Shown piece after piece: positions 18,102-23,532 of a stretch of DNA of 64,000 nt (position 1 is the stretch's first letter; each line of letters starts with the position of its first letter). The translations under genes and the position numbers were made by a program. Below the pieces are notes generated by a model. It did no database searches. It was given only the letters and a program-made list of their open reading frames with translations, and had not been told where the DNA came from. This stretch comes from Myxococcota bacterium (lineage in GTDB: Bacteria > Myxococcota_A > SURF-8): positions 2,304,001 to 2,368,000 of the forward strand of contig CAXXQS010000001.1 of NCBI GenBank assembly GCA_963674735.2, given 5' to 3'.

Positions 18102-18108
18102 GAAGCGG

Positions 18109-18225
18109 TCAGCGTTTCTTGCGAGGTTTGCTCGGCTCTCCTTCCCCGCGCAGACTGATAAGCACCACGCCGGTGAGAGAGAAGAAAAACGCAATTGCCG
18201 CCAATAGCTGGATCCACGTGGACAT
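18109..18225 (-). CDS. Small single-TM protein (38 aa), not in ORF track
   Basis: AAGGAG RBS (18235-18240); MSTWIQLLAAIAFFFSLTGVVLISLRGEGEPSKPRKKR*, a hydrophobic helix plus basic tail. Confidence 0.6.
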   Translation of the reverse strand: MSTWIQLLAAIAFFFSLTGVVLISLRGEGEPSKPRKKR

Positions 18226-18310
18226 GATAGGCCACTCCTTTCCCCTCTTGTCTAGCGCGTTGGATGAAGCAGGTCAAGTTATTAACCCAACCCGCGGTTT
18301 CCTTGTATAC

Positions 18311-18398
18311 TGCTCTCCCGAGTGATTCCACGAAACGAAATCATATAGAAGGCTCCCTCGATACGCCGTTTGTCAAACGGCAACACGGAGATGAACGT
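18311..18398. repeat. Palindromic doublet repeat, family B
   Basis: CCCGAGT-hairpin-ATATAGAAGG / CCCTCGATACG-hairpin-ACACGGAGATGAACG. Relatives at 20209-20256, 31507-31546 and 46580-46665. Confidence 0.7.
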
Positions 18399-18502
18399 TT
18401 TCTGTAGCTTTCATTGGGAGAGCTTGCTTTTAGAACATAGCGGATGACAACTTATCCGAGCTACTCCTTTACAGCTCCAGCGAATAATTTCACACGGGAC
18501 AA

Positions 18503-18532
18503 TTGACTTTCGCCGCTAATCGTTTTAATAAT
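18503..18532 (+). promoter_or_regulatory. Putative sigma70 promoter for the tmRNA-like RNA
   Basis: TTGACT at 18503 and an AT-rich TAATAAT 17 nt later, ending about 25 nt upstream of the predicted mature 5' end. Confidence 0.5.
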
Positions 18533-18556
18533 AACATGATTACGGTTCTATGGCAT

Positions 18557-18677
18557 GGGGGCGACAGGGCTTCGACGGGGTGCAGCTATCGCCTGGATAT
18601 AGATACATTCTTCAGATAGCTAGCCTGACGTTGCGCCGCACAAGCGGTGTTAGGTTCGATTCCCCCCGCCTCCACCA
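18557..18677 (+). ncRNA. Miniature tmRNA-like RNA (tRNA-like domain only, 121 nt)
   Basis: 5' GGGGGCGACAGGGCTTCGACGGGG and 3' GGTTCGATTCCCCCCGCCTCCACCA match tmRNA termini. GGGGGCG/CGCCTCC acceptor stem with G3.U, A discriminator and CCA. T-stem is atypical. Confidence 0.75.
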
Positions 18678-18781
18678 TTTTATGTTTATGATTTCAACAA
18701 CTTATGACTCTCACCTAGAAGCAGTGCCCAAATAGTGCCTAACTAAATTTGATGTTATCCTGCATGGAGGTCACTTTAATA

Positions 18782-19444
18782 ATGACATCTAAAAGCAATA
18801 TTTGGGTCGCTTCAATAGTTTGTTTTGTTATTACTTTGGCGATATATATTTCTTTGAATGGCTATCTAAATACAAAATACCCTAATGATAAATGGGCTAC
18901 GGCCATTCTTGAAATAGTGTCTTCGCTTGGTGTATATACCATAATTTTTCATCTGTACTTGTTTATCTACGAGAAGTACCTATTTGTAATGATTGATAAA
19001 AGATTTGACATGACAGGCGAGTGGTTTCAGGTATTTATCATTAAGAACCCCGCAGATGGGGTGGCATCAATTCGTCACGGTTATTGTTCGATTAAAGCTT
19101 CACCTAATGGAATAAATCTTTCGGCAGAGAATTATAGACCTGATGACACCTTTAGTTCAAACTGGCAGTCGGAAGTCACTACCATTATTAACAATCAACT
19201 ATATGTAATGTTTGTGTCACAGGGCAACAGGCCCACAAACCCAATAACAAGAGGAACAATGGTTTTTAATATTCATGGGTGTCCTCCAAATCGGCTAATT
19301 GGTACTTTTAATGATTCAACACCTGCAACCCATTCGGGAGAAATCCGTATATTTCGTGAGTATGATGAATATTGTCAATACTTAAATAGTTTTCAGGTCG
19401 ATGGGGTTCCAGATATACCTAGCAGGCTAGATCAAGGCGAATGA
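18782..19444 (+). CDS. 2TM + beta-strand-rich protein (S-2TMbeta/Cap15-like)
   Basis: GGAGG RBS; two N-terminal TM helices, then FDMTGEW and alternating beta strands ending LIGTFND...SGEIRIFR; AT-rich. Confidence 0.6.
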   Translation: MTSKSNIWVASIVCFVITLAIYISLNGYLNTKYPNDKWATAILEIVSSLGVYTIIFHLYLFIYEKYLFVMIDKRFDMTGEWFQVFIIKNPADGVASIRHGYCSIKASPNGINLSAENYRPDDTFSSNWQSEVTTIINNQLYVMFVSQGNRPTNPITRGTMVFNIHGCPPNRLIGTFNDSTPATHSGEIRIFREYDEYCQYLNSFQVDGVPDIPSRLDQGE

Positions 19445-19445
19445 T

Positions 19446-20027
19446 ATGTATTTTTTTGAATATGCAAAGAGTTTTCTCTACAGGATGCTATTGAAAAGAA
19501 AGCATACCTTTATAAATCCTACCGCAATAATACTTAATGTAAAAAAAATAGATATCGGTTCCAACGTGATAGTGGGCAGACATGCTTTTATTAGGGGAGG
19601 TCAAGATCCGTCAAGCCATCTTAAAATTGGTGATAATGTAGTAATTAGAATGAATACGTACTTAAGTTCCAGGCATGGGGATCTATCCATCGGTAAAAAC
19701 ACCTATTTTGCTCACTCCTGTTGGCTTGGAGGGCAAGGAACCACAACCATCGGAATGAACTGCTTGTTTGGTCCTAATGTTGTGTCAATCTCTTCCAACC
19801 ATGATTATAATAATATTTCAACTCCCTATCACAAAGGGGATGAACTTCCAGGTGTAATCACAATTGGGGATAATGTATGGATTGGAGCAAATGCAGTAAT
19901 ATTACCCAATGTAAAAATAGGAAATGGAGCAGTTATCGGTGCCGGATCTGTAGTAACCAGTGATGTACCAGCGAGAACTCTTTTTGTTGGTAACCCAGCT
20001 ATATTCCAGAAAAATCTACGTTCCTAA
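19446..20027 (+). CDS. Hexapeptide-repeat (left-handed beta-helix) O-acyltransferase
   Basis: IGSNVIVG, IGDNVVI, SSNH, ITIGDNVWIGANAVILPNVKIGNGAVIGAGSVVTSDVP...GNPA. Confidence 0.92.
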   Translation: MYFFEYAKSFLYRMLLKRKHTFINPTAIILNVKKIDIGSNVIVGRHAFIRGGQDPSSHLKIGDNVVIRMNTYLSSRHGDLSIGKNTYFAHSCWLGGQGTTTIGMNCLFGPNVVSISSNHDYNNISTPYHKGDELPGVITIGDNVWIGANAVILPNVKIGNGAVIGAGSVVTSDVPARTLFVGNPAIFQKNLRS

Positions 20028-20098
20028 TTGCAGTTTAATAGTCCTTGAGAGACCCGTTTTTTCAATGGGTAAAGGCTGTTAACTATATTATACGAAAT

Positions 20099-20179
20099 TC
20101 ACCCATCCAACCCCTTGACCGCATCCCGTTTGACCTCCGGGGCCAAGTGCATGTACCGCATTGTAGCCGGGTAGCGACG
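20099..20179 (-). pseudogene. Tyrosine integrase C-terminal remnant
   Basis: Manual translation RRYPATMRYMHLAPEVKRDAVKGLDG*, matching the catalytic-Tyr tail T.RY.HL.P.....AV..L; cut upstream by the repeat at 20180. Confidence 0.7.
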
Positions 20180-20256
20180 TGGAGCCCGTCGGAGACGCGC
20201 TCCAACACGATTTCATGAAATGAAATCGCATCGAAGGCTGCCTCGATACGCCGTTT
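20180..20256. repeat. REP-like module Z plus partial family B repeat
   Basis: TGGAGCCCGTCGGAGACGCGCTCCAAC is identical to 33760-33786; 20209-20256 matches 18324-18371 at 41/48 by manual alignment. Confidence 0.85.
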
Positions 20257-20341
20257 AACCGGATTCCCATTTGACAGACAGCCCCCAGGCGCTAAGATAG
20301 GGCCCGATTCCGATGTGGATTTCCGGAGGAAGAAAGCGATC

Positions 20342-21121
20342 ATGTCCAAACCGATCTATCGTCACTGCAGCCTGCGCTTCTTCGACCGCGATTGGGAGCA
20401 TCACCGCGCCGCCCAAGCCCCCCTGGAACTCGTCCTGCACGGCGATGAGTTGGATGCCTGGCGCACTAACGGCGCGCTGGAGGCCATTCGCCGTCTCAAA
20501 GCGGATTACAACCCGCCGCTGTCGCTGCACGGTCCGGTTTTCGGCTTCGATCCGGCCTCCCATGATAAAGGTCTGGCCGCCCTCACCGAGAAACGCGCCC
20601 TGCTGGCTCTGGAAGCCGCCGAGGAAATGCAGGCCGAGGTAATCGTTTTCCATTCCAGTTTCAATTACCTCGCCTACGGTTTCGAACGCGACTACTGGCG
20701 CGAAACCAGCAGCGCCTTCTATCTGCGCCTGCTGGAACAGCTCCCGCCCGAACGCCGGATCGTCGTCGAGAACATCCACGAAGTCGAACCGACCCCCCTG
20801 GCGTCTCTGGTACATGGGATCGACGATGCGCGCCTGGGCCACTGCTTCGATGTGGGTCATTTCAATATGTTCTGCAAAACCGTCGACATGGCCGACTGGC
20901 TGGCCGCCTTCGCCGGTCGCTTGGGCCACATCCATCTGCACGACAATCAGGGACGTGAAGACCTGCACCACCCGCCGGGGACGGGCACGATCGATTATAC
21001 GCCCCTGCTAAAAGTTCTCAAGACCGCCCCCGAACCTTGGTCGGTGACGGTGGAATGCAAGAATACCGCCGACAACGATCAGGCGGTAGCCTGGACGACA
21101 GAATACCTGCCCCTAGGCTAA
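20342..21121 (+). CDS. Sugar phosphate isomerase/epimerase (AP endonuclease 2 TIM barrel)
   Basis: SLHGP, IVVEN, CFDVGH, HIHLHDNQGREDLH, GTIDY, TVE. Confidence 0.88.
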   Translation: MSKPIYRHCSLRFFDRDWEHHRAAQAPLELVLHGDELDAWRTNGALEAIRRLKADYNPPLSLHGPVFGFDPASHDKGLAALTEKRALLALEAAEEMQAEVIVFHSSFNYLAYGFERDYWRETSSAFYLRLLEQLPPERRIVVENIHEVEPTPLASLVHGIDDARLGHCFDVGHFNMFCKTVDMADWLAAFAGRLGHIHLHDNQGREDLHHPPGTGTIDYTPLLKVLKTAPEPWSVTVECKNTADNDQAVAWTTEYLPLG

Positions 21122-21302: not shown

Positions 21303-21411
21303 TTGAACTAAGAGCATGTTGACGAGACAACAAATGAGTCAGGATGTATTGACAATGAAAACCGAACACCCTACAAACAAATTATATGTGAGTTGTGAAA
21401 GGAGGTCTGTG

Positions 21412-23532
21412 ATGACCCGTTCGATGTATTGGCTGTGTCTGCTGGCCATCCCCCTGATGCTGTTTGGCTGCTGGGAAGTCAGTCTGGGCGACAGCGATCC
21501 CGATAACACGGATCAAGATCCGAAATTGGAGAAATTCGACACCAGCGGCTGCAAAGGCTATGAGGAAGACGCCCCGGCGGCAAAGCTCAACGACTCCGAT
21601 TCGGCCTTGCCCAACCCCGAGGGCAACCCCATCCAGGCCATTGCGCATGATACGTCCATCACCATCATCCATCACAATGCGTACTACCAGTGCGGCGCGG
21701 AAATGAGCTTCAAGCTGACCGCCGATGGCCGGGATCTGAAGCTGAATGAGATCGATAACGCGAGCATGGTTACCGATTGCATGTGCTACATGGATCTGCA
21801 GACCGACATCACCGGTCTCGTCCCCCAAACCACCTATCACGTGGAAGTGTGGGATGAATTCGGCGACATCCTGTTCGGCGAAGTGGACGTCACCGTCGGC
21901 GAGTGCGACGACACATGCGTCTTCGACCGCGATTGCCGGGATCTCGATTTACCGCATCCCGAATGCGGAGGCGACTGGGCCTGCATGGAAGGCAGCTGCG
22001 AATGGATCTGCGACAGCGACCCCATCGCTTGTTCCAGCGACTACGACTGCCCCGCCGACTACGAGTGTGTGTGGTACGATCAGGCCCAGCCGAGCACACC
22101 CGACGAAAACGGTGCGGATATGCCGGCGATGATGTGCGAAGTGGATTCGGATTGCCCGGAAGGCCAGCAATGCGCCCTGGTCGACTGCGCCGAGGGCTAC
22201 GACTGTGAACCCTACGGCGTCTGCATGGGAGACGATCCCTGGTACGGCGAAGGCATATGCGAACCGCGACAAGTCGAGTGTTACACCGATGAGGACTGCT
22301 ACGAATACGATTGGATGCCCGGTCCTTGCCTGGGCGGCACTTACGTAGCCTGTGAAAACAACCAATGCGTCTTCGATTGCTTCGATGAGGAATGCCGCAG
22401 CGATTACGATTGCCCGAACGGCTCCCACTGCGAGTTCTACGACGTTTATCCCGATGAACCGGGCTACCCCGAAGGTGGCGGCGAAACCGGCATTCCACTC
22501 GAATGCGCTTCGGACGCCGATTGCCCCGAAGGTCTGTGGTGCGAATTGATGGACTGCGGTCCCAACGAAGACTGCTATCCCTACGGCATGTGCGTGGGCG
22601 GCGATCCGTGGCCGACCGAAGGCGTGTGTGTGCCCGACAGCCAACCGGAGTGCTGGGAGGATGCGGATTGCCCCAGCGGCTATCATTGTGAATACAGCGA
22701 TATACCCGTGCCGGGCGACGATGGAACCACGGATCCCACCGCGGATGAAGCTCCCGATATGCCACCGCCCTACGGCATCTGCGTCGCCGATGACCCGTCC
22801 TTCATCTGCTGGGATCTGGGAGGCGAATGCTTCCCGCTGACCGCCGACGGCGCCATGTGTCCGCCGGGATGGCAACTGGCCGATATGCTCTATGGCGTGG
22901 AACCGCTATGCGGAGTCGGCGGTGCATGCTGCATGCCGATCGAAATGGAATGCGACAGCAACGCCGATTGCGCCTATGGCGAAGTGTGTGTAAACGGGTT
23001 GTGCCAGGGTTCCTGCAACTGCGACGATGTCTACGAACCGGTTTGCGGCTACGACGGTCGAACCTACCCCAACGCCTGCGAAGCCGCCTGCGACGGCGTT
23101 CGAATCCTGCACCACGGCGCGTGCGCTGAAGGCTGCGTCTGCCCGGAATACTTCGCCCCCGTCTGCGGCACGAATGGCAAGACCTACGACAACGAATGCT
23201 TCGCCGAATGCGATAATGTGGCGATTCTTCACCAAGGTTTCTGCGACGATCCGCAGTACGAATGCAGCAGTGATCTCGATTGCCCGAATGGCTTCATCTG
23301 CGACCCCTGCCCGCCCTATCCGGGCTGCCCCGAATGCGACGCCTGCGGTCCGGCCGTCTGTGTCCCGGGAAATGATCCCAGCTGCGAGGATTTCGGCGGC
23401 TTCTGCATCGGCCTTTACCCCGGTTCTCAATGCCCCGACGGCTACACGGTGCCGCAGGTGACGGTGGTCCTGTGCGGCGACGGCGGCATGTGCTGCGCCC
23501 CGATCACGGAGGATGGCGAACTTCCCGATTAA
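21412..23532 (+). CDS. Cys-rich acidic lipoprotein with two Kazal-type domains
   Basis: AAGGAGG RBS; lipobox LFGC; C..D.DCP.G..C repeats; PVCGYDGRTYPNAC and PVCGTNGKTYDNEC. Confidence 0.85.
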   Translation: MTRSMYWLCLLAIPLMLFGCWEVSLGDSDPDNTDQDPKLEKFDTSGCKGYEEDAPAAKLNDSDSALPNPEGNPIQAIAHDTSITIIHHNAYYQCGAEMSFKLTADGRDLKLNEIDNASMVTDCMCYMDLQTDITGLVPQTTYHVEVWDEFGDILFGEVDVTVGECDDTCVFDRDCRDLDLPHPECGGDWACMEGSCEWICDSDPIACSSDYDCPADYECVWYDQAQPSTPDENGADMPAMMCEVDSDCPEGQQCALVDCAEGYDCEPYGVCMGDDPWYGEGICEPRQVECYTDEDCYEYDWMPGPCLGGTYVACENNQCVFDCFDEECRSDYDCPNGSHCEFYDVYPDEPGYPEGGGETGIPLECASDADCPEGLWCELMDCGPNEDCYPYGMCVGGDPWPTEGVCVPDSQPECWEDADCPSGYHCEYSDIPVPGDDGTTDPTADEAPDMPPPYGICVADDPSFICWDLGGECFPLTADGAMCPPGWQLADMLYGVEPLCGVGGACCMPIEMECDSNADCAYGEVCVNGLCQGSCNCDDVYEPVCGYDGRTYPNACEAACDGVRILHHGACAEGCVCPEYFAPVCGTNGKTYDNECFAECDNVAILHQGFCDDPQYECSSDLDCPNGFICDPCPPYPGCPECDACGPAVCVPGNDPSCEDFGGFCIGLYPGSQCPDGYTVPQVTVVLCGDGGMCCAPITEDGELPD

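Follow-up and report, generated by a model that had tools for sequence, protein, structure and literature searches.

A tag-less mini-ssrA in a Myxococcota genome is probably a decaying ssrA paralog at the border of an island relic

Introduction

Is a 121-nt sequence that begins and ends like a tmRNA gene, and that has no tag reading frame in between, a small RNA in its own right or the remains of a complete ssrA gene? The question is raised by positions 18557–18677 (+) of a 64,000-nt stretch of a Myxococcota genome, referred to as the window, which corresponds to G000:C1:2304001-2368000. Reduced tmRNAs, including forms consisting of the tRNA-like domain only, have been described in mycobacteriophage DS6A and in jakobid mitochondria (PMC4131195; PMC3590771). 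Phage DS6A is said to encode little beyond the tRNA-like domain, and a molecule of this kind is reported to inhibit tmRNA (PMC4131195). tmRNA pseudogenes and ssrA fragments made by genomic islands are treated in the island literature as known by-products of island traffic (PMC4131195; PMC4383910).

The original prediction for this locus favored a selected RNA and proposed four roles for it, among them a decoy for SmpB or AlaRS and a landing pad for integrases. Here we compare the locus, which we call the mini-ssrA, with the full-length ssrA of the same genome, with a second reduced copy and with the islands that target ssrA, and we weigh the readings that these comparisons allow.

Sequence and predicted fold of the mini-ssrA

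The mini-ssrA opens with GGGGGCGACAGGGCTTCGACGGGG and closes with GGTTCGATTCCCCCCGCCTCCACCA. As originally described, its tmRNA termini stand in normal order, and both the sequence and the pair probabilities confirm the acceptor stem. Positions 1–7 pair with 111–117 (G-C, G-C, G.U, G-C, G-C, C-G, G-C) at predicted probabilities of 0.98–1.0, and ACCA follows; the G3.U pair, the discriminator A and the encoded 3′ CCA are all in place. In the mini-ssrA the alanine identity elements reside in the acceptor stem alone; a minihelix can be charged by AlaRS. The two internal hairpins that had been reported are likewise present. AGCTATC (18584–18590) is complementary to GATAGCT (18615–18621) and pairs with it in the MFE fold, and the hairpin GCGCCGC-ACAA-GCGGTGT lies 3′ of this stem.

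The T arm, a 5-bp stem closing the 7-nt TTCGATT loop, is not formed in the mini-ssrA. Two of the five T-stem pairs are possible (both G-C), the others being A.C, U.C and U.C; the predicted probability of the stem is 0.0, and in the MFE fold the T loop pairs with a 5′ TCGA. The T arm and P2 belong to the tRNA-like domain, with which SmpB and EF-Tu make contact, and the parts of it that these two proteins use are missing here.

Detection by standard tools had been put forward as a check. Infernal aligns 18557–18677 end to end to the tmRNA model RF00023 with 30.1 bits (E 2.3e-10, 601 bases searched), a score below the RF00023 gathering score of 47, hence the absence of the mini-ssrA from a scan at gathering level, and ARAGORN made no call anywhere in the window. 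The RF00023 score alone cannot settle tmRNA identity, since the tRNA-Ala genes of the same genome score similarly to the mini-ssrA. The 12 RF00023 hits in this genome comprise the full ssrA, the mini-ssrA, nine tRNAs and one displaced tRNA-Ala fragment. This fragment, C2:180015-180099 (85 nt, 23.2 bits, no tRNA call), was considered as a third mini copy and rejected, its last 51 nt being identical to the 3′ part of the tRNA-Ala(CGC) gene at C2:136902-136977. As a separate observation, the fragment marks an island of ~43 kb in that tRNA gene.

Derivation from the genome's own ssrA by two deletions

A full-length ssrA lies at C1:607260-607611 (−), 1.7 Mb from the mini-ssrA (352 nt, 203.4 bits with RF00023, tag AENNYALAA). 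BLAST of the mini locus against the full locus returns three blocks (E 1e-9 to 1e-27): 61 bp upstream together with the first 27 nt (88 nt, 84% identity), the interior (50 nt, 86%), and the last 25 nt together with 65 bp downstream (90 nt, 89%). Because the similarity to the genome's own ssrA includes the flanks, the mini-ssrA is more than a chance resemblance to a tmRNA gene.

Within the gene, positions 1–27 of the mini-ssrA match 1–27 of the full ssrA at 25 of 27 positions, 28–44 match 147–163 (13/17), 56–96 match 174–214 (36/41), and 97–121 are identical to 328–352 throughout (25/25). The resulting three segments are listed in Table 1. Missing are full positions 28–146 and 215–327, or 232 of the 352 nt. 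According to the Rfam structure of the full gene, these comprise most of the P2 5′ strand, PK1, the tag ORF (90–122) with its hairpin, the first half of PK2, the 3′ part of PK3, PK4, the P2 3′ strand (full ~285–325 in the Rfam alignment, inside the second deletion) and the T-stem 5′ strand. The description of the locus as a tag-less ssrA derivative is thereby borne out, the tag ORF falling inside the first deletion. With the T-stem 5′ strand and the P2 3′ strand both deleted, a complete tRNA-like domain cannot form.

The same alignment of the full gene accounts for the internal hairpins, which are PK2 stem 2 and the PK3 hairpin of the parent gene, retained between the two deletions. Neatly closed hairpins had been taken as the sign of a selected RNA rather than a deletion, an argument that loses its footing here, and more generally hairpins in an ssrA remnant can be inherited pieces of pseudoknots instead of signs of selection. 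One mini-specific change, T to A, adds a pair to the AGCTATC/GATAGCT stem. The PK2/PK3 part resembles the ssrA of this genome and not the ssrA of three related genera, so the mini-ssrA came from the same or a close lineage. The words at the edges of the deletions are alike (GGGGTGC/GGGTTGC and AGGT/GGGT), and from this likeness the deletions may have occurred between short repeats.

The termini of the mini-ssrA are well kept, with two differences from the full ssrA in 52 nt, compared with 84–89% identity in the blocks that hold the promoter and the arm. A binomial estimate for the first 27 nt gives P of about 0.17. This conservation could reflect selection in the mini-ssrA or recent recombination at the att core.

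Table 1. Features of the mini-ssrA locus, in window coordinates.
Feature	Position	Strand	Description
Element A copy	18317–18405	+	Dispersed repeat of ~90–100 nt; left limit of similarity between the mini and sister loci
Spacer	18406–18495	+	Common only to the sister locus, no other match in the genome; terminator-like hairpin at 18406–18424
Promoter-like site	18503–18532	+	Sigma-70-type TTGACT-18-AATAAT, 10/12; homologous to the full-ssrA promoter
Segment 1	18557–18583	+	5′ acceptor strand, D-loop analogue, start of P2 5′ strand; full ssrA 1–27
Segment 2	18584–18652	+	PK2 remnant (stem 2) and PK3 hairpin; full ssrA ~147–214
Segment 3	18653–18677	+	Two T-stem bases, T loop, T-stem 3′ strand, acceptor 3′ strand, ACCA; full ssrA 328–352
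Arm (P′-type)	18678–18742	+	Direct repeat AGTGCC-N5-AGTGCC; in the 90-nt block 89% identical to the sequence downstream of the full ssrA
Cargo ORF	18749–19444	+	231 aa; hydrophobic N-terminus by eye
Cargo ORF	19446–20027	+	193-aa hexapeptide-repeat transferase; PF00132, E 2.3e-21
Integrase remnant	20102–20170	−	Last ~22 codons and stop of a tyrosine integrase gene
REP-like repeat	20180–20209	+	30-nt palindromic dispersed repeat, about 30 copies in the genome
Element A partial copy	20209–20256	+	Direct orientation to 18324–18371, 85% over 48 nt

A second, more decayed copy

A sister copy of the mini-ssrA is found at C1:380180-380404 (−), and both deletion junctions are common to the two, the reduced form having outlived at least one duplication. 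The sister has A3-U in place of G3.U, a C6.A mismatch and the T loop CAAGATC, its att core is degenerate, and an extra 34-nt gap has cost it both the PK2 stem's 3′ strand and the 5′ strand of the PK3 hairpin. The sole homolog of the mini-ssrA, residing in the same genome, has thus not conserved the internal hairpins that the proposal of a selected RNA had emphasized.

The two copies are identical at 68 of 89 positions in element A, 80 of 90 in the spacer, 58 of 61 in the promoter region (−61 to −1), 38 of 44 in the 5′ part of the RNA, 21 of 27 in its 3′ part and 44 of 65 in the arm. By these segment identities the RNA is no better kept than the non-coding spacer, and the promoter is the best kept of all. 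The longest perfect run covers 53 columns and lies over the promoter, compared with an overall identity of 86%; when the 40 differences were redistributed 100,000 times at random among the 284 columns, such a run had P of about 0.005, in a test that was chosen post hoc.

With the full ssrA as outgroup, the promoter and first 27 nt show 12 changes common to both minis, two specific to the mini-ssrA and five specific to the sister. Counted by lineage, on three sequences only, the sister has five changes in the promoter and 5′ block and 6 of 27 at the 3′ end, and the mini-ssrA has 2 of 52 at its termini.

The mini-ssrA borders an island relic

Each mini copy stands on the left border of a short islet made up of an attP-type arm, cargo that varies, and the final ~22 codons of a tyrosine integrase gene (Table 1). 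In the window, the GC content of the cargo region is 33–40%, against 55–63% in the flanks. Segment 3 of the mini-ssrA is the att core that is repeated at island ends. The adjoining arm is missing downstream of ssrA in three related genera and is present beside a detached ssrA 3′ fragment in a further genome (G002, 82-nt match), a distribution that identifies it as island DNA and not as native flank.

At the other end of the islet, the integrase remnant is translated as ATMRYMHLAPEVKRDAVKGLDG followed by the stop, compared with TTMRYMHLSPEVKRDAVAGLDEI and stop at the end of the intact integrase; in tblastn it matches aa 332–352 at 85.7% identity (E 8.7e-5). The stub is truncated at the 30-nt dispersed repeat, and the junction is the same in the sister locus.

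The intact form of this layout is the locus after the real ssrA. There, the gene is followed by a 65-bp arm, a co-oriented 541-aa gene (DUF4062 and HAD) and a convergent tyrosine integrase, Int1 (C1:604484-605548), which matches PF00589. Farther along the same contig, a displaced ssrA 3′ fragment (C1:575498-575522, the core with two mismatches) is followed by ~65 bp and then by Int2 (574393-575433), 50.6% identical to Int1, from which it follows that the real ssrA carries islands in tandem. Another core-like word, with four mismatches and without CCA, occurs at C1:519962-519986, within the stretch C1:519962-607611 in which the tandem arrangement was noted.

An additional island relic, C1:2025201-2025412, contains an ssrA 3′ core (2025201-2025225, three mismatches), a second type of arm with GTGCGGC repeats and a 40-aa C-terminal integrase stub (62.5% identical), and has no 5′ part of ssrA. 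The relic to which the mini-ssrA belongs is unusual in that the promoter and both ends of the target gene have been kept.

Proposed origin

Four things are established: the paralogy with ssrA, the two deletions, the setting in an island and the decayed state of the sister. On these grounds we put the probability at about 70% that the mini-ssrA is a decaying ssrA paralog, or pseudogene, that forms the left border of an immobilized relic of an ssrA-targeting island. Speaking against this reading are the well-kept termini, the survival of the reduced form and its promoter through at least one duplication, and the pair added to the AGCTATC/GATAGCT stem. The ancestral unit would have comprised the ssrA promoter, ssrA, the island arm, cargo and the integrase, an arrangement still intact at the real ssrA. 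This unit would have reached a second chromosomal site, and the route could have been an aberrant excision that took the host gene along, an island with its own copy of the target gene, or a rearrangement. The redundant ssrA then lost two internal blocks, apparently between short similar words, and of the integrase only the final ~22 codons survived. In this reduced state the unit was presumably copied once more and its cargo exchanged, either by integration at the mini att core with deletion between the integrase ends or by a double crossover. If so, two deletions in a redundant ssrA that came with an island are enough to produce what looks convincingly like a mini-tmRNA.

If transcribed, the mini RNA would have an acceptor stem of the AlaRS type and would be without T arm, P2, resume codon and tag. 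Such an RNA would therefore support no trans-translation and would present no complete SmpB/EF-Tu-binding domain, and the locus probably has no function as an RNA. What does appear to have been maintained is the promoter, together with the intact cargo genes that follow.

Promoter conservation and probable read-through into the cargo

A rival reading differs on the present use of the locus only. Selection may keep the strong ssrA-type promoter, in which case the mini-ssrA would be a 5′ leader that drives the cargo after the loss of the integrase, and RNase P might cleave this leader off at the acceptor stem. The origin would be that of the decaying paralog in an island relic. We regard this reading as unlikely overall, but it draws on several features. 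A promoter-like site is present, as the original prediction had tentatively proposed, and in a consensus scan it scores 10/12 in all three ssrA copies; the perfect run described above lies over it. No terminator-like site was found by consensus scan between the RNA and the cargo in any of the three copies. The cargo ORFs are open, lie on the same strand as the RNA and start about 70–105 nt past its end. On the other side, the run-length test is post hoc, consensus scans are weak evidence, whether of a promoter or of a missing terminator, and the cargo genes may own separate promoters.

The cargo itself differs between the two islets. For the 231-aa ORF, an ATG at 18782 after GGAGG is by eye the likelier start, and the protein matched no Pfam family and no PADLOC family. 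The cargo of the sister islet is instead a 294-aa AbiJ_NTD4 protein (L028:477-1361(-) in C1:378785-381904; PADLOC PDC-S32, E 5.9e-103), a candidate defence protein, which also counts in favor of the leader reading. That one frame of arm and integrase stub encloses different genes points to a small cargo slot whose contents can be exchanged.

Under the favored reading as a decaying paralog, too, the promoter is conserved, the cargo is open and no terminator-like site stands between them, so that read-through into the cargo is the likeliest present use, and what survives of the mini-ssrA is most likely a transcribed leader reading into the cargo genes. The ssrA-type promoter may still drive them; if it does, the locus would illustrate clearly how an island can borrow the strong promoter of a housekeeping RNA. 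A more elaborate version, in which the ssrA promoter and a stripped tRNA-like leader (acceptor stem with G3.U and CCA) form a domesticated, portable module for expression and processing that drives candidate defence or other cargo in both islets now that the integrase is lost, and in which the released 121-nt RNA, if alanylated, might also hinder AlaRS or SmpB, strikes us as rather improbable.

The att core as a possible integration site

Of the four roles originally proposed, a landing pad for integrases appears to be the only one that fits the context, in which island sequences adjoin an att core matching exactly over 25 bp. Under this explanation the core would serve as a secondary attB, an extra site for ssrA-specific integrases, and the cargo differences between the islets would stem from integration followed by deletion. 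The mini core is identical to the 3′ end of the real ssrA at 25 of 25 positions, near-identical cores are found at two other island borders, and the genome encodes two intact ssrA-type integrases. Identity between the mini and sister loci is 86–95% left of the core, falls to the 44/65 of the arm, is nil in the cargo and returns to 90% at the integrase remnant, a pattern that fits replacement on the right side of the core. A double homologous crossover between the conserved flanks would give the same pattern. Furthermore, no resident island shows an attR beyond the mini-ssrA, no att core copy other than that of the mini-ssrA is found in the window, and the sister core is degenerate. That integrases can use a site does not imply that the site is kept for integration, and we consider a role of this kind quite doubtful. 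By either route, the two loci are a small case of cargo exchange within a fixed frame: with att core and arm at one end and the integrase stub at the opposite end in both, the enclosed cargo differs.

Homolog searches and the case for a functional RNA

Compared with decay in an island relic, a tag-less, tmRNA-like small RNA that acts as an SmpB or AlaRS decoy, or in non-tagging rescue, is very improbable. It would be consistent with the intact acceptor stem with its G3.U, A73 and CCA, with the promoter-like site and with the stability of the fold (z = -2.95), and a precedent exists in the tRNA-like domain of phage DS6A, a molecule of that kind being described as an inhibitor of tmRNA (PMC4131195). 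Against it, the T arm and P2 cannot form in the mini-ssrA, the hairpins are inherited and not newly evolved, and the sister is without G3.U, an intact T loop and the hairpins. Only one smpB gene is encoded in the genome; it is located on C2, away from all ssrA copies and unlinked to them.

Homologs were also lacking in the related genomes and in the contig, phage and plasmid collections searched. A match spanning both mini termini was found in none of 40 related genomes. Outside the genome itself, matches were confined to the conserved 3′ end, the arm (the 82-nt match in G002) or one 38-nt 5′ piece. In five genomes of the family, RF00023 identified a full-length ssrA in three and otherwise gave only hits of 76 or 86 nt; the one short hit that was checked is a tRNA-Tyr. 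A search for the junction pattern returned 45 loci in genome_contigs, where about 35 chance hits are expected, and 70 in metagenome_contigs, and none of these is tmRNA-like beyond the pattern itself. When the 281-nt mini locus was compared by BLAST with all 115 pattern loci, the best match was to locus L047, with 38 nt at 84%. The phage and plasmid collections contained no match to the mini-ssrA.

The surroundings of the three copies were also compared with relatives. An Hsp33-like gene, which together with a TIM-barrel gene flanks the islet, occurs in two of five family genomes, and the TIM-barrel gene was not seen within the loci retrieved. Three relatives yielded no counterpart of the gene that precedes the full ssrA, and tblastx of five flanks of the three copies against the ssrA loci of relatives gave no hits.

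The least probable explanation, an assembly artefact in which the genome's only ssrA collapsed, can be set aside with near certainty: contigs from public runs do break at 18516–18522, where the mini loci share sequence, but a complete 352-nt ssrA stands 1.7 Mb away, the mini-ssrA differs from it at many positions, and two runs of one sample cross the whole mini-ssrA and reproduce it exactly. The contig from run X2 (7409 nt) spans 18516–20700 and that from run X1 (168 nt) spans 18516–18683, both with zero differences. These two runs represent one sample, possibly the source sample of the genome, and X1, X2 and X3 are contigs of one study. A joint in X3, which connects 18388 to 20180 with 31 other letters between them, was considered as an empty site and set aside: the joint has a flank of no more than 28 nt, and element A is found together with the 30-nt repeat at other loci as well.

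Comparison with known ssrA derivatives

The decaying paralog has its closest counterparts among the ssrA pseudogenes and fragments made by islands (Hudson, Lau & Williams 2014, PMC4131195; Islander, PMC4383910). As in the cases described there, duplicated ssrA sequence adjoins both island DNA and an integrase, the att core is supplied by the ssrA 3′ end, standard tmRNA detectors fail, and tandem islands with displaced 3′ fragments occur in the same genome. The likeness is not complete. The displaced fragments covered in PMC4131195 are 3′ pieces only, and the pseudogenes there miss one end of the gene, whereas the mini-ssrA keeps both ends and the promoter. Unlike those fragments, it is without its interior, lies far from the real ssrA and is present in two copies with the same deletions.

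With the reduced tmRNAs of DS6A and jakobids, compared here by their published descriptions only, the mini-ssrA has in common the lack of a tag frame and of the pseudoknot ring, and the presence of both termini and of alanine identity elements. Those forms are described as keeping the tRNA-like domain; in the mini-ssrA, by contrast, the T stem is reduced to two of five pairs and P2 is destroyed. In comparison with a standard tmRNA, represented by RF00023 and by the full ssrA of this genome, the mini-ssrA has a homologous promoter, the first 27 and last 25 nt of the gene and some of PK2 and PK3, but misses 232 of 352 nt including the tag ORF, and scores 30.1 against 203.4 bits.

Dispersed repeats and neighboring ORFs

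The islet is bounded by a full and a partial copy of element A (Table 1). Whole-genome BLAST located 13 further copies, partial or whole, on C1, C2 and C3, and 14 copies were aligned. Within the window, Rfam families all stayed below their gathering scores; a MITE, a REP/BIME-like repeat and an RNA are candidates for the nature of element A. Element A contains three short palindromes (ATTTCGCGAAGCGAAAT, ATCGAAGGCTCCCTCGAT and CCGTTT..AAACGG) and often adjoins the 30-nt palindromic repeat GGAGCCCGTCGGAGACGCGCTCC.

Two further reading frames near the islet were noted. Between the Hsp33-like gene and the islet, a ~44-aa ORF with a hydrophobic core, too short for the length limit of the ORF list, was recognized by eye at 18104–18238 (−). 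On the other side, 21316–23532 (+) encodes a 738-aa, very cysteine-rich and acidic ORF with repeated C-x-x-D-C-P motifs, and near its end two stretches resemble Kazal-type inhibitors by eye (PVCG..G.TY.N.C.A.C).
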